Position numbers and translations under genes: made by a program. From Escherichia coli (lineage in GTDB: Bacteria > Pseudomonadota > Gammaproteobacteria > Enterobacterales > Enterobacteriaceae): 64,000 nucleotides of DNA. The DNA is taken from the NCBI RefSeq assembly GCF_036507355.1, contig NZ_AP027877.1. One strand, 5' to 3'. Below the pieces are notes generated by a model. That model was given only the letters and a program-made list of their open reading frames with translations, was not told where the DNA came from and did no database searches. Shown here one piece after another: positions 757 through 36,797 of this stretch (positions are counted from its first letter, which is position 1; each line of letters begins with the position of its first letter).

Positions 757-2142
757 TTATACATCCGCCGGATCGATACCGTATTCCTGGAGTTTATACA
801 TCAATGCACGGCGACTGATGCCCAGCATTAAAGCAGTGCGGGTTCGGTTTCCTTCTTGTTGTTCCAGCACTTCCATAATGATGCGTTTTTCGACGCGTTT
901 AATTTCCTCTTTTAAATTACGCTCTCCGACAGGGGCTGTTTTTACCTCGCCAGCATTACAGACTGGCTGACGAATCTGCGGCGGAAGATCCTCAGAAAAA
1001 ATGATCGGGCCTGAATTCATCACGACGGCGCGTTCAATAACGTTGGAAAGCTCTCGAATATTTCCCGGCCATGACCAGGCGGTAAGCAGTGACATTGCCA
1101 TCGGATCGATGTCGATAATATCGCGCTGATTCTCACTACTGAATTTTTGCAAAAAGTGATTAGCTAACAGGGAAATATCTTCCCGGCGATCGCGCAGAGG
1201 CGGCAGTATTAAATGAATAACGTTAAGGCGATAAAAGAGATCTTCACGGAAGGTGCCTTCTTTTACCATTGCCTGCAAGTCGCGGTTGGTGGCAGCAATG
1301 ATGCGGATATCAACTTTTATGGTCTGATGGCCGCCAATCCGTTCAAATTCCCGTTCCTGCAGAATGCGTAGTAATTTGGCTTGCAGTACGAGCGGCATTT
1401 CGCCAATTTCGTCGAGGAGCAGAGTACCTTCGTTGGCACGTTCAAATAATCCCTGACGCAAGGTTTGTGCACCAGTAAATGCACCTTTTTCATGACCAAA
1501 CAGTTCACTTTCGAGCAACGATTCCGGCAGCGCCGCGCAGTTGACTTTAATGAACGGCCCCTTTGCCCGCCGCGAATTGTAGTGAATCGCTCTGGCAATC
1601 AACTCTTTCCCGGTGCCGCTTTCACCGCTAATCAAGACGCTGGCCTGAGAAAGGGCAATTTTGGCGGTGTCTTTGCAGATATCCATCATCGCCGGGCTGT
1701 TGGTGAGAATGTGCCCCCATTGCCAGCTGGTGCTCAGTGCCTGGTGCAGATGACGGATCTCTTTTTTCATTGACTGGAGTTGTAAAGCGCGCTGAACGAT
1801 TAAATTCAACTCATCGAGATCAAACGGTTTAATAACATAGTCGAAGGCCCCGCAGCGTAGCGCTTCGACGGCGGTTTCCACTTCAGCATAGGCCGTCATC
1901 AGAATAACGGGTGTCCGGGTCTCATGGCTGCGCATCTCCTTTAGTGCCTTGATGCCGTCCATCTCTGGCATGCGGATATCCATCAACACCACGTCAGGGT
2001 GAATATCAGCAAACAGGTGTAATGCTGTGCGTCCGTTGTTCGCACAATGTGTTTCGAATCCTTGTAGTGCAAAAGCGGTGCTCAGCATACGGCGAACATT
2101 ATCTTCATCATCCACAATAAGGATGCGATTAATAGCAGTCAT
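757..2142 (-). CDS. atoC: sigma54-dependent response regulator AtoC (461 aa)
   Basis: ORF track; N-terminal receiver domain, central AAA+ sigma54-activator motif GESGTGKE, C-terminal HTH; start overlaps atoS stop (ATGA). Confidence 0.93.
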   Translation of the reverse strand: MTAINRILIVDDEDNVRRMLSTAFALQGFETHCANNGRTALHLFADIHPDVVLMDIRMPEMDGIKALKEMRSHETRTPVILMTAYAEVETAVEALRCGAFDYVIKPFDLDELNLIVQRALQLQSMKKEIRHLHQALSTSWQWGHILTNSPAMMDICKDTAKIALSQASVLISGESGTGKELIARAIHYNSRRAKGPFIKVNCAALPESLLESELFGHEKGAFTGAQTLRQGLFERANEGTLLLDEIGEMPLVLQAKLLRILQEREFERIGGHQTIKVDIRIIAATNRDLQAMVKEGTFREDLFYRLNVIHLILPPLRDRREDISLLANHFLQKFSSENQRDIIDIDPMAMSLLTAWSWPGNIRELSNVIERAVVMNSGPIIFSEDLPPQIRQPVCNAGEVKTAPVGERNLKEEIKRVEKRIIMEVLEQQEGNRTRTALMLGISRRALMYKLQEYGIDPADV

Positions 2143-3965
2143 ACAGTCTGATTTCCCTGCGGGTTGATCGGTAAAATAAGCGTGAAGGTTGCGCCGTAGC
2201 CCGGCAAACTGGCGACGCGAATATCACCCTGATGGGCATTAATGATGCGTTGACTTAACGCCAGACCAAGCCCGGTTCCTGAGGCTTTGGTGGTGAAAAA
2301 GGGATCGAAGATCTTTTTTTGCAGCGAGAGATCAATGCCACAGCCGTTGTCCTCTATCGAAATGGCCTGTTGTGAGTCGCTGTACTGCCAGGTTCGAATG
2401 CGAATTTTCCCTCGTGCGCTGATAGCCTGGACGGCATTGATCAGGATATTCAGTAGTACCTGTTTGAGCAGTTCACGATCGGCGTTAATCGGGCTTAATT
2501 CATTATCCAGTTCGCTTATGAAGTCGATCCGCGCTTGTACGCCGGCGGTTTGTACCAGTACCAGAGTTTCTTCAACCAATGCATTGAGGCTGACTTGTTG
2601 CCATTGACTGTGGCGTGGACGTGAAAATTCGAGCAATTGCTGAATAACTTTGTTAATTGAATCGATTTCTTTGAGTACTACGGACAGATATTCCTGATGT
2701 ATTAGGTCGCTGGTTTGTTGGCGCAAGATCTGTACATAACCACGAATAGCCGTTAGCGGATTACGTACTTCATGCGCGACGCCAGCCATCAGCTCACCCA
2801 GTGTGGCGAGGCGTTCTGCTTGCGCCATGCGGCGCTGGGTTTCTTTGCGGGCAGTTAAATCAGAGAAAATCACCAAAGCACCTATCATTTCACCGTGCGT
2901 GTTATGAATACGACTGGTAGTGACACTGAGTTCAATGGTGCGGTCACGGCCTGGAAAACTGATCTCCAGCGCCACATGTTCGGTGCCATGTTCCAGCGTA
3001 TCCAGTACTGGACTGTAGAACTGAGTATTGTCGAACAACATGGAGTAAGGCTGCCCTACCAGTTCATGACGTTGATAGCCAGTGATAACTTCTGCTGCCG
3101 GGTTCATGGTGGTTACATCACCCTGGCGGTCAATGGCAATGACGCCATCGGCAGCGTTTTCAATAATCAGATCGTTAAGTGTCCGCGTTTCACGCAGTGC
3201 CTAGGCGAGGTTGTTAACACTCTGACTGATTTGCCCCATTTCACCGGGCAATTGTGGTAATCGAGTGGGAATATTTTGTGCCAGAGTCGAGAGGCCATCG
3301 GTGATGATATCAATATTGGCGCTCAGGCGACGGGAGAAAAGGACAATCAACAGCAGGCTTATCAGCAAACCGGCGGAGAGCACAATGATAATCCTCACAT
3401 CCATTTTCCAGGCCTGGCGGCGAATATCTTCGGTTAATTCATTGGCCCAGATATAGCCGAGGATTTCACCATTACGCTCAATGGGGATCATTGAATTCAA
3501 AATATCGCCGCGCACCTGCCTGCCTGAATACACCAAAGGGGTATTTGCACGCATGACTTCGCGACCAGGGTGATCTGCGGCAATGGTAACGCCGACATTA
3601 TTCTGATATAGCGCTGAAGGCGCGTAGGTGATTATCGCATCCAGCGTTTTGTTGTAATAACCAGCGCCGATGCCAGGGAAGGCGTGAGTGATATTCTCGG
3701 TAATGGGGGCAAGTTCTGCATTTAATGCGCGGATACGCTCCTCACGCGGTAAGTCGATGTAGAGATCGTAGCGATCGCCTAGCGCCTGATTAAGCAGGTT
3801 GACCACGGCAGAAAGTTTTTTCTCTTTTTCAGATAAGACTGCTGAACGTCCTTCTGTTTCTACGATATAACCAATAGTAAGCGTTGGGACAATGACCATC
3901 AGGATTGCCATCAGAATCATTTGATTGCGTAAGCGGCGTGGATAAATCCACTTCATATAATGCAT
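2139..3965 (-). pseudogene. atoS: sensor histidine kinase AtoS interrupted by one in-frame TAG at codon 255 (plus coordinates 3201-3203)
   Basis: Track ORFs 3201..3977 and 2139..3107 are in the same frame and together span exactly 609 codons; translation across the junction reads ...VNNLA*ALRETRTL...; ATG for MHYMKW at 3963-3965. Confidence 0.85.
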
Positions 3966-4131
3966 GCTGAAATCCACTAGTCTTGTCCGGTATATGACGA
4001 TTATCAGAGGTTAAGGTGATGATTTCTCGGCGGTGTATCATATTCCAGAGAAGAGAGAACATTGCGGTAACACGCTTTTACCGCTACCTTAACCACACTC
4101 CATCGGTCACCTGAGGCGGAGCTTCGCCCCT

Positions 4132-6981
4132 TTGAAATACCTTGCTTCTTTTCGTACAACCCTGAAAGCCTCGCGCTACATGTTCAGAGCATTGGCGTTA
4201 GTGCTCTGGCTGTTGATTGCTTTTTCATCCGTTTTTTACATCGTTAATGCGTTACATCAGCGAGAATCGGAAATTCGTCAGGAATTTAATCTGAGTTCCG
4301 ATCAGGCTCAGCGCTTTATTCAACGCACCTCTGATGTGATGAAAGAGCTGAAGTACATCGCCGAAAATCGCTTATCGGCAGAAAACGGTGTGCTTTCCCC
4401 GCGTGGACGAGAAACGCAGGCGGATGTGCCTGCGTTTGAACCGCTGTTTGCCGACTCTGATTGTTCCGCAATGAGTAACACCTGGCGAGGTTCTCTGGAG
4501 TCATTGGCGTGGTTTATGCGCTACTGGCGCGATAATTTTTCTGCGGCTTACGATCTCAACCGGGTATTTTTAATCGGCAGCGATAACCTCTGCATGGCCA
4601 ATTTCGGTCTGCGTGATATGCCAGTGGAACGCGATACCGCGTTGAAAGCGTTGCATGAACGCATCAATAAATATCGAAATGCACCACAAGATGATAGCGG
4701 CAGTAACCTCTACTGGATCAGCGAAGGTCCGCGCCCTGGCGTCGGGTATTTTTACGCGTTGACGCCAGTTTATCTGGCGAACCGGTTGCAGGCGCTTTTG
4801 GGTGTCGAGCAGACCATCCGGATGGAGAATTTTTTCTTACCTGGTACGTTGCCGATGGGGGTTACCATTCTTGATGAAAATGGTCATACCCTGATTTCGC
4901 TTACCGGACCAGAAAGTAAAATTAAGGGCGATCCTCGCTGGATGCAGGAACGCTCCTGGTTTGGCTATACGGAAGGGTTCCGGGAGCTGGTGCTGAAGAA
5001 AAATCTGCCACCCTCATCGCTAAGCATCGTGTATTCGGTGCCGGTTGATAAGGTGCTGGAACGCATTCGCATGTTGATCCTTAACGCAATTTTGCTGAAT
5101 GTGCTTGCCGGAGCTGCATTGTTTACTCTCGCGCGGATGTACGAGCGACGTATTTTCATTCCGGCGGAAAGCGACGCCCTGCGACTGGAAGAACATGAGC
5201 AGTTCAATCGCAAGATTGTCGCCTCCGCGCCAGTGGGTATCTGCATTTTGCGTACCGCTGATGGCGTCAATATTTTAAGTAACGAACTGGCGCATACCTA
5301 TCTCAATATGCTTACGCATGAGGACCGCCAACGACTGACACAAATTATCTGTGGGCAGCAGGTCAATTTTGTTGATGTCCTGACCAGCAACAATACCAAT
5401 CTGCAAATCAGCTTCGTCCATTCGCGCTATCGTAATGAAAACGTGGCCATTTGTGTGCTGGTGGATGTTTCTTCGCGCGTGAAGATGGAAGAGTCGTTGC
5501 AGGAGATGGCACAAGCAGCGGAACAGGCGAGCCAGTCAAAATCGATGTTCCTTGCCACCGTCAGTCATGAGCTGCGAACGCCGCTGTATGGCATTATCGG
5601 TAACCTGGATCTTTTGCAAACCAAAGAGTTACCGAAAGGCGTCGATCGTCTGGTGACGGCAATGAACAACTCTTCCAGCCTGTTGTTGAAAATTATCAGC
5701 GATATTCTCGATTTCTCGAAGATTGAATCGGAACAGTTGAAGATCGAACCGCGTGAGTTTTCACCGCGTGAAGTGATGAACCACATCACCGCCAACTATT
5801 TACCGCTGGTGGTACGCAAGCAGTTAGGCTTGTACTGCTTTATTGAACCGGATGTGCCAGTGGCCTTAAATGGCGACCCGATGCGTTTACAGCAGGTCAT
5901 CTCCAACCTGTTGAGTAACGCCATAAAATTCACCGATACCGGCTGTATAGTTTTGCATGTCCGCGCTGATGGCGATTATCTCTCTATCCGTGTTCGCGAT
6001 ACCGGCGTGGGGATTCCGGCGAAAGAAGTGGTGCGCTTGTTTGATCCCTTCTTCCAGGTCGGAACGGGCGTACAGCGAAACTTCCAGGGGACCGGTCTGG
6101 GTCTGGCGATTTGTGAAAAACTGATCAGCATGATGGACGGCGATATCTCGGTAGATTCAGAACCGGGAATGGGCAGCCAGTTTACCGTGCGTATTCCGTT
6201 GTACGGCGCTCAGTACCCGCAGAAAAAAGGCGTGGAAGGGTTGAGTGGTAAACGCTGCTGGCTGGCGGTCCGCAATGCGTCGCTCTGTCAGTTCCTGGAA
6301 AACAGTTTGCAGCGCAGCGGCATCGTCGTAACAACATACGAAGGGCAGGAACCGACTCCCGAAGATGTGTTAATCACTGACGAGGTAGTGAGTAAAAAAT
6401 GGCAGGGCAGAGCGGTAGTGACCTTCTGTCGTCGACATATTGGTATTCCGCTGGAGAAAGCGCCAGGGGAGTGGGTACACAGTGTGGCTGCCCCGCATGA
6501 GCTACCGGCATTGTTGGCGCGTATTTATTTGATCGAGATGGAGAGCGACGATCCTGCTAACGCTCTGCCGTCGACGGACAAAGCGGTCAGCGATAATGAC
6601 GATATGATGATTCTGGTCGTGGATGATCATCCGATTAACCGACGTCTGCTGGCAGATCAGTTGGGATCGTTGGGCTATCAATGTAAAACCGCGAATGATG
6701 GCGTCGATGCGCTTAATGTACTTAGCAAGAATCATATTGATATCGTGCTTAGCGACGTCAACATGCCAAATATGGATGGTTACCGCTTGACGCAACGCAT
6801 TCGTCAGTTGGGACTGACGTTGCCGGTAATCGGAGTAACTGCTAATGCGTTGGCTGAAGAGAAGCAGCGGTGTCTGGAGTCCGGTATGGACAGCTGCCTC
6901 TCGAAGCCGGTAACGCTGGATGTGATAAAACAGACGCTGACGGTATATGCCGAGAGGGTCAGGAAATCGCGGGAATCGTAG
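4132..6981 (+). CDS. rcsC: hybrid sensor histidine kinase RcsC (949 aa)
   Basis: ORF track; HisKA H-box (SHELRTPL), HATPase and C-terminal receiver domain; convergent with rcsB. Confidence 0.93.
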   Translation: MKYLASFRTTLKASRYMFRALALVLWLLIAFSSVFYIVNALHQRESEIRQEFNLSSDQAQRFIQRTSDVMKELKYIAENRLSAENGVLSPRGRETQADVPAFEPLFADSDCSAMSNTWRGSLESLAWFMRYWRDNFSAAYDLNRVFLIGSDNLCMANFGLRDMPVERDTALKALHERINKYRNAPQDDSGSNLYWISEGPRPGVGYFYALTPVYLANRLQALLGVEQTIRMENFFLPGTLPMGVTILDENGHTLISLTGPESKIKGDPRWMQERSWFGYTEGFRELVLKKNLPPSSLSIVYSVPVDKVLERIRMLILNAILLNVLAGAALFTLARMYERRIFIPAESDALRLEEHEQFNRKIVASAPVGICILRTADGVNILSNELAHTYLNMLTHEDRQRLTQIICGQQVNFVDVLTSNNTNLQISFVHSRYRNENVAICVLVDVSSRVKMEESLQEMAQAAEQASQSKSMFLATVSHELRTPLYGIIGNLDLLQTKELPKGVDRLVTAMNNSSSLLLKIISDILDFSKIESEQLKIEPREFSPREVMNHITANYLPLVVRKQLGLYCFIEPDVPVALNGDPMRLQQVISNLLSNAIKFTDTGCIVLHVRADGDYLSIRVRDTGVGIPAKEVVRLFDPFFQVGTGVQRNFQGTGLGLAICEKLISMMDGDISVDSEPGMGSQFTVRIPLYGAQYPQKKGVEGLSGKRCWLAVRNASLCQFLENSLQRSGIVVTTYEGQEPTPEDVLITDEVVSKKWQGRAVVTFCRRHIGIPLEKAPGEWVHSVAAPHELPALLARIYLIEMESDDPANALPSTDKAVSDNDDMMILVVDDHPINRRLLADQLGSLGYQCKTANDGVDALNVLSKNHIDIVLSDVNMPNMDGYRLTQRIRQLGLTLPVIGVTANALAEEKQRCLESGMDSCLSKPVTLDVIKQTLTVYAERVRKSRES

Positions 6982-7174
6982 GACGGATAAGGTGTTTATG
7001 CCGCATCTGGCATTCAGTGCAAATGCCAGATGCGACGCTGACGCGTCTTATCTGGCCTACTTTAATGTAATCTGTTGAAATAATGGGAATCGTAGGACGG
7101 ATAAGGCGTTTACGCCGCATCCGGCAATCGGTGCAAATGCCAGATAAGACACAAACGCGTCTTATCTGGCCTAC
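6971..7174. repeat. REP/BIME cluster: two ~90-bp units in tandem (6971-7060 and 7085-7174), each carrying REP palindromes (GCCGGATGCGGCGTAAACGCCTTATCCGGCCTAC-like)
   Basis: Direct reading; units about 88 percent identical; first unit overlaps the last codons and TAG stop of rcsC. Confidence 0.8.
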
Positions 7175-7180
7175 AGATGA

Positions 7181-7831
7181 TTAGTCTTTATCTGCCGGAC
7201 TTAAGGTCACAGAAGAGAGATAATTCAGCAGGGCGATATCGTTCTCGACACCCAGCTTCATCATCGCAGATTTCTTCTGGCTACTGATGGTTTTAATACT
7301 GCGGTTCAGCTTTTTAGCGATCTCGGTCACCAGGAAGCCTTCCGCAAACAGGCGCAGAACTTCACTCTCTTTTGGCGAGAGACGCTTGTCACCGTAACCA
7401 CCAGCACTGATTTTTTCCAACAGGCGAGAAACGCTTTCTGGGGTAAATTTCTTCCCTTTCTGCAGCGCGGCGAGAGCTTTCGGCAGATCGGTCGGTGCAC
7501 CTTGTTTCAGCACGATCCCTTCGATATCCAGATCCAATACCGCACTAAGAATCGCCGGGTTGTTGTTCATGGTCAGAACAATAATCGACAGGCTTGGGAA
7601 ATGGCGCTTGATGTACTTAATTAAGGTAATGCCATCGCCGTACTTATCGCCAGGCATGGAGAGATCGGTAATCAACACATGCGCATCCAGTTTCGGCAGG
7701 TTGTTGATCAGTGCTGTAGAGTCTTCAAATTCGCCGACAACATTCACCCACTCAATTTGCTCAAGTGATTTGCGAATACCGAACAAGACTATCGGATGGT
7801 CATCGGCAATAATTACGTTCATATTGTTCAT
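7181..7831 (-). CDS. rcsB: response regulator RcsB (216 aa)
   Basis: ATG at 7829-7831 gives MNNMNVIIADDHP...; receiver plus LuxR-type HTH; the track's 231-aa ORF is an upstream extension. Confidence 0.93.
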   Translation of the reverse strand: MNNMNVIIADDHPIVLFGIRKSLEQIEWVNVVGEFEDSTALINNLPKLDAHVLITDLSMPGDKYGDGITLIKYIKRHFPSLSIIVLTMNNNPAILSAVLDLDIEGIVLKQGAPTDLPKALAALQKGKKFTPESVSRLLEKISAGGYGDKRLSPKESEVLRLFAEGFLVTEIAKKLNRSIKTISSQKKSAMMKLGVENDIALLNYLSSVTLSPADKD

Positions 7832-19787: not shown

Positions 19788-19822
19788 TTGATCCTGCTAC
19801 AGGTTTTACCTCGATCGGGGTA
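19788..19822 (+). promoter_or_regulatory. napF promoter control region: degenerate FNR-like site (TTGAT-N4-CTACA, 19788-19801) and NarP/NarL 7-2-7 heptamer pair (TACCTCG-AT-CGGGGTA, 19807-19822)
   Basis: Motifs read directly; the two centres are 20 bp apart, as expected for the known -64.5/-44.5 napF architecture. Confidence 0.55.
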
Positions 19823-19935
19823 TGCATCTTTGACACATCCTTTAATATCTTAGCGGCTATAAAAATGGCTTATTAATTATGCGGTTTATTTGGTCGCTCT
19901 CAATTTTCAGAGCGCGTTAATGATGGAAGGTCAAT

Positions 19936-20430
19936 GTGAAGATTGATGCATCCCGTCGGGGCATACTCACTGGTCGCTGGCGCAAAGCCAGTAACGGTAT
20001 CCGTCCGCCCTGGTCCGGTGATGAATCTCATTTTCTGACCCATTGCACCCGCTGCGACGCCTGTATTAATGCTTGTGAAAACAACATTCTGCAACGCGGC
20101 GCGGGCGGCTATCCGAGCGTTAATTTCAAAAATAACGAGTGCAGCTTCTGTTACGCCTGCGCGCAGGCTTGCCCCGAATCGCTATTTTCTCCGCGCCACA
20201 CCAGGGCCTGGGATTTGCAGTTCACCATTGGGGACGCGTGCCTGGCGTATCAGTCAGTTGAATGCCGCCGCTGTCAGGATAGCTGTGAGCCAATGGCAAT
20301 TATCTTTCGCCCGACGCTCTCCGGGATCTACCAGCCGCAACTTAATAGCCAACTTTGCAACGGATGTGGAGCATGTGCAGCCAGCTGTCCGGTATCAGCC
20401 ATAACTGCGGAGTATCTCCATGCACACTAA
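19936..20430 (+). CDS. napF: ferredoxin-type protein NapF (164 aa)
   Basis: ORF track; multiple CxxCxxCxxxCP 4Fe-4S motifs. Confidence 0.92.
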   Translation: MKIDASRRGILTGRWRKASNGIRPPWSGDESHFLTHCTRCDACINACENNILQRGAGGYPSVNFKNNECSFCYACAQACPESLFSPRHTRAWDLQFTIGDACLAYQSVECRRCQDSCEPMAIIFRPTLSGIYQPQLNSQLCNGCGACAASCPVSAITAEYLHAH

Positions 20431-20683
20431 CTGGCAAGTTTGCAGCCTGGTCGTGCAGGCCAAAAGCGAACGAATTTCAGACATCAGCACCCAACTGAAC
20501 GCCTTTCCCGGCTGTGAAGTTGCTGCCAGCGACGCGCCGAGCGGTCAGTTGATTGTGGTGGTGGAAGCAGAAGACAGCGAAACGCTGATCCAAACCATTG
20601 AGTCAGTACGCAACGTAGAGGGCGTGCTGGCGGTGTCGCTGGTTTATCACCAGCAGGAAGAGCAAGGTGAGGAAACACCATGA
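20420..20683 (+). CDS. napD: NapA chaperone NapD (87 aa)
   Basis: ORF track; overlaps napF end and napA start. Confidence 0.9.
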
Positions 20684-32075: not shown

Positions 32076-32124
32076 AAAGTGGCCCGATGGTGATTCCATC
32101 AGGCCAGACTGATGACAAAGTGCG

Positions 32125-32245
32125 CTTAGTTTATGCCGGATGCGGCGTGAACGCCTTATCCGGCCTACACAATCGTGTGAATTCAATAAATTGATCGATC
32201 CGCGTAGGCCTGATAAGCGTAGCGCATCAGGCAGTTTTGCGTTTG
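32125..32245. repeat. REP element pair between ccmH and narP
   Basis: GCCGGATGCGGCGTGAACGCCTTATCCGGCCTAC and inverted partner read directly. Confidence 0.75.
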
Positions 32246-32285
32246 TCATAAATCTCAGCCCGATGATAAATCCATCGGGCTATTT

Positions 32286-32933
32286 TTATTGTGCCCCGCG
32301 TTGTTGCAGGAACAGAATGGTGGCTGCCACGCGTGAGCGGACATTGAGTTTGCGCAGCAGATTGCGAATATGTACTTTTACTGTCTGCTCGGAAATATTC
32401 AACACCGAGGCAATCTGTTTATTTGACAGCCCCTGTGCCAGCTCGTGCAGAACATCCAGCTCGCGCTCCGTCAGCACGCTGAAGGGATCTTCTTCCGCGC
32501 CAAACATTTCACGTTCATGTAAGTACTGATTGACGCGTTCGCTAAAGACTTTGCTGCCTTTCGCTCCGGCACGAATCGCTTCCAGCAACACTTCCGGGTC
32601 GCTGTCTTTCAACAGATAACCGTCTGCGCCTGCGTCTATCAGCGCAAAGACATCGCTGGAGGCATCTGATACGGTCAGGATAATAATTTGCGCGGTAACG
32701 CCATCCCTGCGCAAGGCATTGAGGGTATCCAGGCCACTCATACCTTTCATATTGAGATCCAGCAAGATCACGTCGATATCCAGTCTATTCGCCAGATCGA
32801 TAGCACTCGCGCCGTCGCCCGCTTCGGCGACCACTTCAAAGCCAGGATCAAGCTCCAGTAACTGACGAACACCGCGTCGCATAAGTGGATGATCATCCAC
32901 AATCATCACCTGAAAAGGCGTTGCTTCAGGCAT
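32286..32933 (-). CDS. narP: nitrate/nitrite response regulator NarP (215 aa)
   Basis: ATG at 32931-32933 gives MPEATPFQVMIVDDHP...; receiver plus LuxR HTH; the track ORF extends 10 codons upstream. Confidence 0.93.
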   Translation of the reverse strand: MPEATPFQVMIVDDHPLMRRGVRQLLELDPGFEVVAEAGDGASAIDLANRLDIDVILLDLNMKGMSGLDTLNALRRDGVTAQIIILTVSDASSDVFALIDAGADGYLLKDSDPEVLLEAIRAGAKGSKVFSERVNQYLHEREMFGAEEDPFSVLTERELDVLHELAQGLSNKQIASVLNISEQTVKVHIRNLLRKLNVRSRVAATILFLQQRGAQ

Positions 32934-33503
32934 AGTAGTCTCCTGAGGTTTTATTAGAATCATTATGTTTGAGCGTAGCGTTGGTAACGCTACCAGGCGC
33001 GTGAATGTTACCCCATTTTATGTATGGACATGTAGCGAAAACTACAACCTTGTCGTTCGCTTTGGCATCATTTTCATTATAAAGACGGAATTTTGCATCA
33101 GCTTCTCATCAAGAAAAACAACTAAAAAATCAATCACAATACTTGTGCATTTCTTTAAACAGTTTTTAAAAACTGACTCCGGGTATGGAGCTATGGGTAT
33201 TTTCTGTACCCAATGCTTTTAACTGCAATTAATTTCATAGGATGAAAGCTCAATGCATCAATCTGGTTCTGTTTCTCTTTGTCGTTCCGCAATATCTGTT
33301 CTGGTAGCTACAGCGTTATATTCACCCATAGCATTGGCATCAACAGTTGAGTATGGTGAGACAGTTGATGGTGTTGTCCTGGAAAAAGATATCCAGCTGG
33401 TTTATGGGACCGCCAATAATACGAAAATCAATCCTGGCGGAGAACAGCATATTAAAGAATTTGGTATAAGTAGTAATACTGAAATTAAGGTAATGACTCC
33501 AAC

Positions 33504-34007
33504 TTATTGATAGTGTTTTATGTTCAGATAATGCCCGATGACTTTGTCATGCAGCTCCACCGATTTTGAGAACGACAGCGACTTCCGTCCCAGCCGTGCC
33601 AGGTGCTGCCTCAGATTCAGGTTATGCCGCTCAATTCGCTGCGTATATCGCTTGCTGATTACGTGCAGCTTTCCCTTCAGGCGGGATTCATACAGCGGCC
33701 AGCCATCCGTCATCCATATCACCACGTCAAAGGGTGACAGCAGGCTCATAAGACGCCCCAGCGTCGCCATCGTGCGTTCACCGAATACGTGCGCAACAAC
33801 CGTCTTCCGGAGCCTGTCATACGCGTAAAACAGCCAGCGCTGGCGCGATTTAGCCCCGACATAGCCCCACTGTTCGTCCATTTCCGCGCAGACGATGACG
33901 TCACTGCCCGGCTGTATGCGCGAGGTTACCGACTGCGGCCTGAGTTTTTTAAGTGACGTAAAATCGTGTTGAGGCCAACGCCCATAATGCGGGCTGTTGC
34001 CCGGCAT
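33504..34007 (-). CDS. insB: IS1 transposase InsB (167 aa; expressed as InsAB' by -1 frameshift)
   Basis: ORF track; recognised IS1 InsB sequence. Confidence 0.9.
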
Positions 34008-34201
34008 CCAACGCCATTCATGGCCATATCAATGATTTTCTGGTGCGTACCGGGTTGAGAAGCGGTGTAAGTGAACTGCAGTTGCCATGTTTTACGGCAG
34101 TGAGAGCAGAGATAGCGCTGATGTCCGGCGGTGCTTTTGCCGTTACGCACCACCCCGTCAGTAGCTGAACAGGAGGGACAGCTGATAGAAACAGAAGCCA
34201 C
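33926..34201 (-). CDS. insA: IS1 protein InsA (91 aa)
   Basis: ORF track; zinc-finger CPSC...CSHC and HTH; overlaps insB as in IS1. Confidence 0.9.
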
Positions 34202-36682
34202 TGGAGCACCTCAAAAACACCATCATACACTAAATCAGTAAGTTGGCAGCATCACCGAAATTAACGGCGGGTATCAGTACATTGAAATGAATGGCACCGC
34301 AGAATACTCCGTATTAAATGATGGTTATCAAATTGTTCAAATGGGTGGCGCGGCAAACCAGACTACCCTCAATAATGGTGTGCTACAGGTTTATGGCGCA
34401 GCGAATGATCCCACGATTAAAGGCGGGCGCTTAATCGTTGAAAAAGATGGGATTACCGTCCTTGCCGCTATCGAAAAGGGAGGATTACTGGAGGTTAAAG
34501 AGGGGGGATTAGCGATTGCGGTAGATCAGAAAGCAGGCGGTGCTATTAAAGCAAGCACGCGGGTCATGGAGGTATTCGGAACAAACCGTCTCGGTCAGTT
34601 CGAAATCAAGAATGGTATTGCTAACAATATGCTGTTGGAAAACGGCGGAAGTTTGCGAGTTGAAGAAAATGACTTCGCTTATAATACTACTGTAGATAGT
34701 GGCGGCTTACTGGAGGTTATGGATGGCGGGACTGCAACTGGCGTTGATAAAAAAGCAGGCGGAAAATTAATTGTCTCAACGAATGCGCTGGAAGTGAGTG
34801 GTACAAACAGTAAAGGCCAATTTAGTATAAAAGATGGTGTGTCAAAAAATTATGAACTGGATGATGGTTCCGGGCTTATTGTTATGGAGGACACGCAGGT
34901 CATTGACACTATCCTCGATGAGCATGCCACTATGCAATCGCTGGGAAAGGATACTGGTACGAGAGTGCAGGCAAATGCGGTATATGATCTCGGTCGATCA
35001 GATCAGAATGGAAGTATAACGTATTCCTCTAAAGCCATCTCTGAAAATATGGTTATCAACAATGGCCGCGCTAATGTCTGGGCTGGCACAATGGTTAACG
35101 TTTCAGTCAGAGGGAATGATGGCATTCTTGAGGTCATGAAGCCGCAAATAAATTATGCACCCGCTATGTTGGTGGGTAAGGTCGTGGTTTCTGAGGGCGC
35201 TTCTTTAAGAACGCATGGTGTCGTGGATACCAGCAAAGCGGATGTTTCGCTCGAAAATAGCGCATGGACCATCATTGCCGATATCACTACGACGAACCAA
35301 AACACCCTCCTCAACTTAGCCAACCTTGCGATGTCTGACGCAAATGTGATTATGATGGATGAGCCAGTGACTCGTTCATCAGTGACGGCAAGTGCGGAAA
35401 ATTTCATTACGTTGACCACCAATACCCTGTCGGGAAACGGCAATTTTTATATGCGTGCCGATATGGCTAATCATCAGAGCGATCAGCTCAACGTCACCGG
35501 TCAGGCAACAGGTGATTTCAAAATATTCGTGACGGACACCGGTGCCAGCCCGGCAGCAGGAGATAGCCTTACACTGGTAACAACGGGCGGCAGTGATGCT
35601 GCATTTACGTTGGGCAATGCCGGAGGCGTTGTTGATATCGGTACGTATGAATATACCTTGCTGGATAATGGCAACCATAGCTGGAGTCTGGCAGAGAATC
35701 GCGCGCAAATTACCCCTTCAACCACTGATGTGCTGAATATGGCGGCCGCACAACCGCTGGTATTTGATGCAGAACTGGACACCGTGCGTGAGCGTCTTGG
35801 TAGCGTAAAAGGCGTTAGTTACGATACGGCGATGTGGAGTTCGGCAATTAACACCCGCAACAACGTGACCACTGATGCGGGAGCTGGTTTTGAGCAAACA
35901 TTGACGGGCCTGACGCTCGGTATCGATAGCCGTTTCTCCCGTGAAGAAAGCAGTACAATTCGCGGCTTGTTCTTTGGTTACTCTCATTCTGATATTGGTT
36001 TTGATCGCGGCGGAAAAGGTAATATCGATAGCTATACCCTGGGGGCTTATGCCGGTTGGGAGCATCAGAACGGTGCCTATGTTGATGGGGTGGTGAAAGT
36101 TGACCGTTTTGCCAACACCATCCATGGCAAGATGAGTAATGGGGCAACAGCGTTTGGCGATTACAATAGTAACGGCGCGGGTGCTCATGTTGAGAGCGGG
36201 TTCCGTTGGGTTGACGGATTGTGGAGTGTTAGACCCTATCTGGCCTTTACCGGCTTTACCACAGATGGTCAGGACTACACGTTATCAAACGGCATGCGCG
36301 CGGACGTGGGAAATACCCGGATATTACGCGCTGAAGCGGGAACGGCGGTAAGCTATCACATGGACCTGCAAAACGGTACGGCGCTGGAACCCTGGCTGAA
36401 AGCCGCCGTGCGTCAGGAATACGCCGATTCTAACCAGGTGAAAGTTAATGACGATGGCAAATTTAATAATGATGTGGCTGGAACCAGTGGCGTTTATCAG
36501 GCTGGGATAAGGTCATCGTTTACCCCGACGTTAAGCGGTCATTTGTCAGTCAGCTATGGCAATGGCGCAGGGGTAGAATCGCCGTGGAATACCCAGGCGG
36601 GTGTGGTCTGGACGTTCTGATAACAGACAATAAACAGGCCGTGATGTGTCGCGGTCTGTTTATCGAATTAAATGCAGATATA

Positions 36683-36712: not shown

Positions 36713-36720
36713 GGGATTTT

Positions 36721-36797
36721 TGGTCGGCACGAGAGGATTTGAACCTCCGACCCCCGACACCCCATGACGGTGCGCTACCAGGCTGCGCTACGTGCCG
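36721..36797 (-). tRNA. proL: tRNA-Pro (anticodon GGG)
   Basis: Minus strand reads CGGCACGTAGCGCAGCCTGGTAGCGCACCGTCATGGGGTGTCGGGGGTCGGAGGTTCAAATCCTCTCGTGCCGACCA (77 nt, cloverleaf, TPsiC-loop GGTTCAAATCC, 3' CCA). Confidence 0.9.

Follow-up and report, generated by a model that had tools for sequence, protein, structure and literature searches.

An intact IS1 with an 8-bp target duplication interrupts the autotransporter gene yejO at a recurrently struck locus of Escherichia coli

In Escherichia coli K-12, yejO is already known to be interrupted by an insertion sequence. In the annotation of MG1655 (NC_000913.3), yejO (b2190) is a pseudogene: IS5K/insH8 (b2192) divides it into two fragments, and the first of these is just 67 nt long. 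The K-12 element is an IS5 of 1195 bp that lies after nt 67 of the gene, with a 4-bp target duplication (TTAT), and its transposase gene runs in the same direction as yejO (PMC11677980). PMC11677980 and PMC11005336 saw no phenotype in their assays after deletion of IS5K from K-12. K-12 also carries IS1A (MG1655 19796-20563), which is the element to compare with the one that we discuss here; IS1 duplicates 8 or 9 bp of its target (PMC12428005).

We analyzed a 64-kb stretch of E. coli DNA (the window) in which yejO is likewise interrupted near its 5' end, but by IS1 instead of IS5, and after nt 236 instead of nt 67 (Table 1). The K-12 site is 169 bp upstream of the site used here, and the IS1 genes are antisense to yejO rather than co-directional with it. 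The initial annotation of this DNA had stated that MG1655 carries IS5 (insH-8) at yejO, and the MG1655 record agrees: the element there is IS5K, at another site, and not an IS1 at the identical position. In both strains, excision of the IS restores an ORF of 863 codons. For the window, we removed 33489-34264 (IS1 and one copy of the repeat) in silico and obtained a single ORF of 863 codons plus a stop, which is the continuous frame that had been claimed. We put the probability that yejO was disrupted by the simple and recent transposition of an intact, IS1A-like IS1 into its coding sequence at roughly 95%.

Table 1. Features of the interrupted yejO locus (positions within the window).
Feature	Position	Strand	Remarks
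narP-yejO intergenic region	32964-33252		AT-rich
yejO 5' fragment	33253-33488	plus	78 native codons; start codon, predicted signal peptide, first passenger residues
Fusion ORF, 85 aa	33253-33510	plus	78 yejO codons and 7 codons into IS1
Equivalent of the K-12 IS5K (insH8) site	33316-33319		target duplication TTAT in K-12; yejO nt 64-67; unoccupied in the window
Target duplication, left copy	33481-33488		8-bp direct repeat GAAATTAA; yejO nt 229-236
IS1 (IS1A-like), 768 bp	33489-34256	minus	transposase genes antisense to yejO; from sequence reading and Pfam/NCBIfam
Right inverted repeat (IRR)	33489-33511		GGTAATGACTCCAACTTATTGAT; left end of element; direct reading
insB' reading frame	33504-34007	minus	open; 232-aa InsAB' after -1 frameshift
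insA, 91 aa	33926-34201	minus	product identical to K-12 InsA1
A6C motif (AAAAAAC)	33944-33950	minus	site of the programmed -1 frameshift between insA and insB'
Left inverted repeat (IRL)	34234-34256		GGTGATGCTGCCAACTTACTGAT on the minus strand; right end of element; direct reading
Target duplication, right copy	34257-34264		GAAATTAA
yejO 3' fragment	34265-36620	plus	nt 237-2592; AIDA repeats, pertactin-like domain, autotransporter beta-barrel

The element in yejO is IS1 proper by its length, its inverted repeats, its reading frames, its domains, and its target duplication. The two ends are imperfect repeats of about 23 bp, of the GGTRATG... type, and by direct reading 18 of their 23 positions agree. 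The transposase domains were found with Pfam (PF03811 at 1.4e-19, PF12759 at 1.7e-28, and PF03400 at 3.5e-78; the Pfam names on the product are DDE_Tnp_IS1, HTH_Tnp_IS1, and Zn_ribbon_InsA) and the family with NCBIfam (NF033558, transpos_IS1, 245 bits versus a cut-off of 100). K-12 IS1A has the same length and is identical at 766 of 768 nt (99.74%), and its InsA, IRL, IRR, and A6C motif are all as in the element in yejO. The two substitutions are at IS1 positions 444 and 486, and one of them accounts for the only residue change in InsAB' (S130R). The two elements differ in chromosomal location, and the location in yejO is absent from every collection that we searched. Thus, the earlier description of a 768-bp IS1 inside yejO, with both inverted repeats and intact insA and insB, stands for the length, the repeats, and the frames, and the A6C motif can be added to it. 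Given the intact sequence, this copy is probably still competent to transpose.

The insertion point lies after 78 complete codons and 2 nt of yejO, that is, inside codon 79, so its original placement after codon 78 was right to within a codon. The direct repeat that had been noted on either side of the element was re-read and is present twice, and the same 8 bp occur once in each of two close relatives (L006 and L008). The duplication ends there, with T versus C on one side and G versus C on the other, and the probability that 8 bp at these fixed positions would match by chance is about 1.5e-5. Both junctions between IS1 and yejO are clean at the termini of the inverted repeats, as read directly. 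We examined seven IS1 copies that have target duplications at narP-yejO, including this one, and the duplication is 8 bp in four of them. The GC content is 0.35-0.42 at 32900-33600, as compared to about 0.50-0.58 in the flanking genes, and IS1 is known to prefer AT-rich DNA. Following the established biology of IS1, the DDE transposase InsAB', the product of a -1 frameshift at the A6C motif, would bind both of the ~23-bp terminal inverted repeats; the ends of the IS would be joined to an AT-rich target cut with a stagger of 8 bp; and repair of the gaps would give the duplication of GAAATTAA.

The product of yejO is an autotransporter of the AIDA-I/pertactin type (type Va) and a putative adhesin. 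The restored protein matches PF03797 (5.4e-45), PF03212 (1.8e-45), and PF16168 (8.5e-50), which are AIDA/Pertactin/Autotransporter families, as well as TIGR01414 of NCBIfam (1.8e-110). By eye, we predict a signal peptide with a hydrophobic core and an ALA|S cleavage motif (...PIALA|STVE) around residue 29. The restored protein is identical to YejO of O157:H7 at 852 of 863 residues and to the restored K-12 protein at 836 of 863, with the K-12 protein differing from this allele at 27 residues. As in MG1655 and O157:H7, the gene lies between narP and the tRNA-Pro gene proL, followed by yejM. The "adhesin-like" label comes from annotation, and our literature search found no functional paper on YejO.

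Codon 79, AAC in the uninterrupted gene, becomes AAG at the insertion, and the frame meets a stop 7 codons into IS1. Translation from the yejO start would therefore end within the element, and the resulting peptide of 85 amino acids would consist of the signal peptide plus about 49 residues of the passenger. The other 2.36 kb, with the passenger repeats and the beta-barrel, would lack a signal peptide and any evident promoter. It is free of stops and frameshifts, and its longest ORF encodes 777 amino acids (from 34287). A search at the junction of IS1 and yejO for promoters, either outward-facing or hybrid, that might drive the remnant gave a single match, a promoter-like site that overlaps IRL (34249-34222, minus strand); it is aimed into IS1 and has the position expected of the insA promoter. 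Because the 3' part lacks both a signal peptide and an evident promoter, no functional YejO should reach the surface. Hence the initial claim that yejO is inactivated by a complete IS1 flanked by a target duplication is borne out in its anatomy and its domains, and the loss of function appears probable from the sequence. It may be that yejO was poorly expressed to begin with. The effect should be confined to yejO, as no gene of the same operon lies downstream (narP is divergent and proL is convergent).

To see whether the same insertion is present elsewhere, we compared 60-bp junction queries to 5,426 complete RefSeq genomes of E. coli. None of the 5,426 has the left junction, and only two (A134_1EC and EC06) matched the right-junction query over its full length, both of them at a different junction 6 bp away. 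A megablast search with the whole element and its flanks gave no full-length match in a single piece, and its 8 best matches were to IS1 at other sites. When we looked up three exact sequences (the fusion ORF of 85 aa, the remnant ORF of 777 aa, and the restored protein of 863 aa), none was on record, and the exact 34-nt left junction had no match among the GTDB species representatives or the JGI metagenome contigs. About 27 genomes or plasmids (E308 and others) have an IS1 with similar flanks, but it lies in a sil/pco island and shares only the 8-mer GAAATTAA. We considered whether these are mobilized yejO DNA and rejected the idea: with about 80,000 places of IS1 in the database, chance or target preference is explanation enough.

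The window and O157:H7 493/89 are collinear over 50 kb, save for the IS1 and an intergenic indel of 153 bp, so no rearrangement accompanied the insertion. Positions 32990-33488 are 100% identical to O157:H7 strains. This IS1 is the only IS in the 64-kb window, and besides a nonsense mutation in atoS we noticed no gene decay in the parts of the window that we examined. A Shigella origin, which came to mind because IS1 is abundant there, was set aside on these two observations.

Could the insertion be an artefact, or could it be old? IS1 is a multicopy element and a classic cause of misassembly, so a copy might have been placed in yejO wrongly when repeats were resolved. But the 8 bp beside the element occur only once in relatives, and a misplaced repeat would not give an exact duplication of them, nor would we expect both junctions to be clean at the termini of the inverted repeats. 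With a perfect duplication at a single-copy target, an assembly error is so unlikely as to be nearly negligible. As to age, the insertion might be fixed in the lineage, or be the reference state of some named group of E. coli or Shigella. The lineage is thinly sampled (the source genome is not among the complete RefSeq genomes, where the best identity to the flanks is 99.3%, and the search covered genomes labelled as E. coli, not Shigella), and unsampled relatives may share the insertion. On the other hand, neither of its junctions is in any of the 5,426 complete genomes, and the two close relatives, L006 (GCA_016660925.1) and L008 (SRR32181686), have an empty site and an intact yejO of 863 amino acids. 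They are collinear with the window and 99.97-100% identical to it: the left flank has no mismatches over 3.4 kb (L006) or 1.3 kb (L008), and the right flank has 2 mismatches over 10.4 kb (L006) or 1 over 5.9 kb (L008). SRR32181686 also has the atoS nonsense mutation that marks this lineage. Together with the perfect target duplication, the intact IS1, and yejO remnants with neither stop nor frameshift, this makes an old insertion quite improbable. Because the insertion is absent from the searched collections and near-identical relatives have an empty site, we view it as recent and strain-specific; it would be younger than the split of this strain from its closest sampled relatives. The initial annotation had also read it as a recent insertion with no later decay, and the sole caveat is a private non-synonymous change in the restored gene (G522S, from G>A at nt 1564; the 12 other alleles that we examined all have G).

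This is far from the only insertion at the locus. We found at least 8 further independent IS events at narP-yejO in other strains (IS1 variants, IS2, and one IS1-associated deletion). Besides the insertion described here, nine independent events, IS5K of K-12 included, lie in this interval, and the catalogue holds at least 10, with 8 of them within about 500 bp (-199 to +309 of yejO). The hits in other strains comprise a single IS2 and, at seven other sites, variants of IS1; a deletion allele shares one of these seven sites. Five of the IS1 sites are upstream of yejO, at -199, -187, -157, -133, and -109 (after the equivalents of 33053, 33065, 33095, 33119, and 33143), and so lie within about 90 bp, in both orientations; the intragenic hits in other strains are at +309 (the IS2) and +1266. 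The strains are TUM12357, EC-07, Z1323CEC0018, and L9; PSS-12; PK8566; 22AR0118; GF66.2; PT109; 23CRST047/049; and A134_1EC and EC06. These hits share the locus and its AT-rich context with the insertion described here, mostly involve the same family of elements, and have target duplications of 8 or 9 bp, but none of them is at the same nucleotide position. A134_1EC and EC06 come closest, with a right junction of IS1 that is 6 bp from the junction here. These strains have an associated deletion from -156 to +234, and at the left they have exactly the junction of the TUM12357-type site. We rejected the possibility that they carry the same insertion followed by recombination, as their right flank begins at the equivalent of 34263, not 34257. 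It had been suggested that yejO was struck independently by different IS elements across lineages, and with IS1 variants, IS2, and IS5K the record now goes beyond that suggestion. The narP-yejO intergenic region is split in at least 33 genomes, or about 0.6-1.3% of genomes if K-12 laboratory derivatives are put aside.

Such a pattern raises the question of selection. The insertion described here and the recurrent hits might be adaptive, either through the loss of a surface adhesin or antigen or through upstream insertions that switch on a silent yejO. The 10 or more independent events, with eight of them in so short a stretch, the cluster of IS1 sites just upstream of the gene in both orientations, and the 33 or more genomes with a split intergenic region speak for this explanation, and the pattern resembles the activation of bgl and flhDC by IS elements. 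Nevertheless, the AT-richness of the region and the preference of IS1 for such DNA explain the clustering without selection, intergenic events are rare outside of the K-12 laboratory derivatives, and deletion of IS5K had no phenotype in the K-12 assays cited above. So we consider an adaptive origin unlikely. A more elaborate version, which we regard as a long shot, is that the intergenic region and the 5' end of yejO are an IS target shaped by selection, in which an upstream IS1 de-silences a cryptic yejO and intragenic hits remove the protein, so that together they form a crude on/off switch for an adhesin. If this were true, then the upstream IS1 copies, which sit at their five sites in unrelated strains, would affect yejO much as IS1 and IS5 affect bgl or flhDC; the hits that remove YejO would be this IS1, IS5K in K-12, an IS2, and another IS1; and the 6-bp near-coincidence with the endpoint of the A134_1EC/EC06 deletion would mark a preferred site of strand transfer by IS1.

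The insertion is real and is a textbook knock-out by IS1 in an AT-rich locus that is struck recurrently; it is of a kind that is already known, and its novelty is low. Its practical value is small, and it has no bearing on any open mechanistic question. Because its junctions are absent from every collection that we searched, it could be used as a clean strain marker for typing. The one question that may be worth following is whether the IS1 copies upstream of yejO in other strains alter its expression. For E. coli more broadly, the insertion is one more allele among the ways in which yejO is lost, and the yejO pseudogene of K-12 is a single example of the many independent hits by IS elements in this short, AT-rich stretch.

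The element that interrupts yejO, judged by every defining feature that can be tested in sequence, is IS1 itself. Reading 33100-34500 directly and checking the element by script, we found that it is exactly 768 bp, from GGTAATGACTCC at one end to GGCAGCATCACC at the other, and that its ends are imperfect inverted repeats (18 of the 23 outermost positions match). Of its 768 positions, 2 differ from the IS1A of MG1655 (NC_000913.3, 19796-20563). The 91-aa InsA matches K-12 InsA1 at every residue, insB' has an open frame, and the deduced InsAB' (232 aa) differs from that of K-12 by a single residue, S130R. Three Pfam domains (InsA zinc ribbon, IS1 HTH, and DDE_Tnp_IS1) are present in the transposase, and the NCBIfam model transpos_IS1 scores well over its cut-off. 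The lone sigma-70-like match in 32900-34500 sits in IRL and is directed into IS1, which we take to be where the insA promoter should lie; a promoter search of that interval showed no outward or hybrid promoter toward the yejO remnant. The element is flanked by GAAATTAA at 33481-33488 and 34257-34264; the match between the two copies goes no further in either direction, which makes the target duplication 8 bp long. That is a normal length for IS1 (PMC12428005), and 4 of the 7 IS1 copies with a target duplication that we examined at this locus, including the window's, have it.

The disrupted gene is the orthologue of yejO. Removing 33489-34264 joins 33253-33488 to 34265-36620 in a single ORF of 863 codons. 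In its product, Pfam and NCBIfam recognise AIDA repeats, a pertactin domain, and an autotransporter beta-barrel. The restored protein differs from YejO of O157:H7 493/89 at 11 residues and from the restored K-12 protein at 27. Its neighbours are the divergent narP on one side and tRNA-Pro(GGG) proL and yejM on the other, as in MG1655 and O157:H7. The break falls after nucleotide 236, within codon 79, and the interrupted frame continues for 78 native residues and then reads KVMTPTY before a stop. The initial annotation had the coordinates and numbers for IS1, its repeats, and the yejO frame right, and the finding is real and was correctly interpreted.

Because the window is collinear with its relatives on both sides of IS1, the event was a simple insertion; neither a deletion nor an inversion created the junctions. 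Given the established biology of IS1, InsAB' would have cut the two target strands with an 8-bp stagger and joined the IS ends to the cut sites, and repair of the gaps would have produced the target duplication. The disrupted allele is presumably null. Apart from the signal peptide, its 85-aa product would keep no more of YejO than about 49 passenger residues. The 777-aa remnant ORF would have no signal peptide and no evident promoter. We would not expect a polar effect on other genes, since narP diverges from yejO and proL converges on it.

The insertion had been described as relatively recent, and its distribution bears this out. None of 5,426 complete RefSeq E. coli genomes carries either junction. 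Searched for exactly, the left junction does not occur in GTDB species representatives or JGI metagenome contigs, and the gene-position index contains no entry for the ORFs spanning the IS1 junctions. Two relatives, GCA_016660925.1 and run SRR32181686, whose YejM matches the window's exactly, have an intact 863-aa yejO and one copy of GAAATTAA each. To the left of IS1, the window is 100% identical to the first over 3,393 bp and to the second over 1,269 bp; to the right, it differs from the first by 2 mismatches (10.4 kb) and from the second by 1 (5.9 kb). As these near-identical relatives have an empty site, IS1 arrived after the clone separated from the closest relatives sampled. The window's sole private point difference over ~7-14 kb against its nearest relatives is a G>A at nucleotide 1564 of yejO (window 34828; Gly522Ser, G522S), where all 12 of the other alleles examined have G. 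One change of this kind could reflect either relaxed constraint or chance.

The window also has an in-frame premature stop in atoS (2139-3965; the AtoSC sensor kinase), at 3201-3203 on the minus strand after codon 254 (SVNNLA-stop-ALRETRTL), which splits the gene into ORFs of 254 aa and 322 aa. This nonsense mutation is in none of the 3,928 complete E. coli genomes with this stretch of atoS (best match 99.5%). It is common to GCA_905398635.1, ERR3330519, and SRR32181686, so it is a lineage marker that predates the IS1 insertion. SRR14867120 (99.4% identical to the window) has the same 322-aa C-terminal ORF but an upstream ORF of 283 aa rather than 254 aa, and its atoS probably carries a different lesion.

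In MG1655, yejO (b2190) is annotated as a two-piece pseudogene, with a first fragment of 67 nt and IS5K/insH8 (b2192) in between. The K-12 insertion has been described (PMC11005336; PMC11677980), so the initial annotation was right to place an IS5 there; K-12 has IS5K, 169 bp upstream of the window's site, and not IS1 at the same position. By mapping other genomes onto the window, we found that yejO and its upstream region have been struck independently by IS1 variants, IS2, and IS5K at distinct sites, as had been supposed for the gene.

IS insertions at narP-yejO and features of the window's IS1
Feature	Window position	Relative to yejO start codon	Target duplication	Genomes
IS1A, opposite orientation		-199	9 bp, one mismatch	22AR0118
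IS1X2, 94% identical, opposite orientation		-187	CGCTTTGG	PK8566
IS1		-157	GAATTTTG	TUM12357, EC-07, Z1323CEC0018, L9
IS1, 94% identical		-133	AGAAAAAC	GF66.2
IS1		-109	CACAATACT	PSS-12
IS5K	33316-33319 (target duplication)	+67	TTAT	K-12
IS1, minus strand, IRL to IRR	33489-34256	+236	GAAATTAA	window
A6C slippery motif in IS1	33944-33950			window
IS2		+309	TTGTT	PT109
IS1, 91% identical		+1266	CACTACGAC	23CRST047, 23CRST049
IS1 with adjacent deletion		-156 to +234 deleted	none	A134_1EC, EC06

Among 5,423 complete genomes, 398 are split within 32990-33488. Among sampled rows, the split genomes (4 of 60) all have their break at the IS5K site; three of the four are named K-12 derivatives. With an intergenic query that excludes the K-12 site (32950-33300), 33 complete genomes are split, and continuous coverage falls below 80% in 70. 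IS1 has long been known to prefer AT-rich DNA, as Meyer et al. in 1980 and Zerbib et al. in 1985 reportedly found. The narP-yejO interval fits this preference: its GC content is 0.35-0.42, versus about 0.50-0.58 in neighbouring genes. It seems quite unlikely to us that the IS traffic at the 5' region of yejO is selected, with upstream IS1 copies activating the gene and intragenic IS insertions abolishing it.

The IS1 of A134_1EC (4001-4768 in that sequence; also in EC06) has its left junction at the TUM12357-type upstream site (window 33095), and its right flank starts at yejO nucleotide 235, 6 bp from the window's junction. This allele arose either by an adjacent deletion that IS1 mediated or by recombination of one IS1 copy with another, and its 777-aa remnant is still annotated as "autotransporter YejO" by PGAP. 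E308 (3210-3977; one of about 27 chromosomes and plasmids) has an IS1 beside copM/silE in a sil/pco island with the identical 8-bp duplication and loosely similar flanks. We rejected transfer of yejO DNA and judge the match to be coincidence or IS1 target preference.

The surroundings vary in other ways. Beside its IS2, PT109 has a length difference of ~160 bp in the AIDA-repeat region (5429-5637 versus 5576-7598; window 34540-34701), which suggests that the number of passenger-domain repeats varies among yejO alleles. In two close relatives with identical YejM (L007, 8122-13761; L009, 3605-5608), the 3' end of proL is occupied by an island that encodes a P4-like integrase, AlpA, and a D5-type primase. 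Their homology to the window ends at 36719, and the window itself lacks an island beside this tRNA (36721-36797). In Shigella flexneri 1c, proL is an integration site for phage and gtrIC (PMC4924310). Between ccmH and narP, about 153 bp (32105-32257) in the window and K-12-like strains is missing from O157:H7 493/89 (spacing of 35 bp versus 210 bp), probably a REP-type repeat indel.

That an IS knocks out a dispensable surface-protein gene is textbook biology, and the corresponding K-12 case is familiar. New here are only this allele and a small catalogue of independent IS events at the locus.
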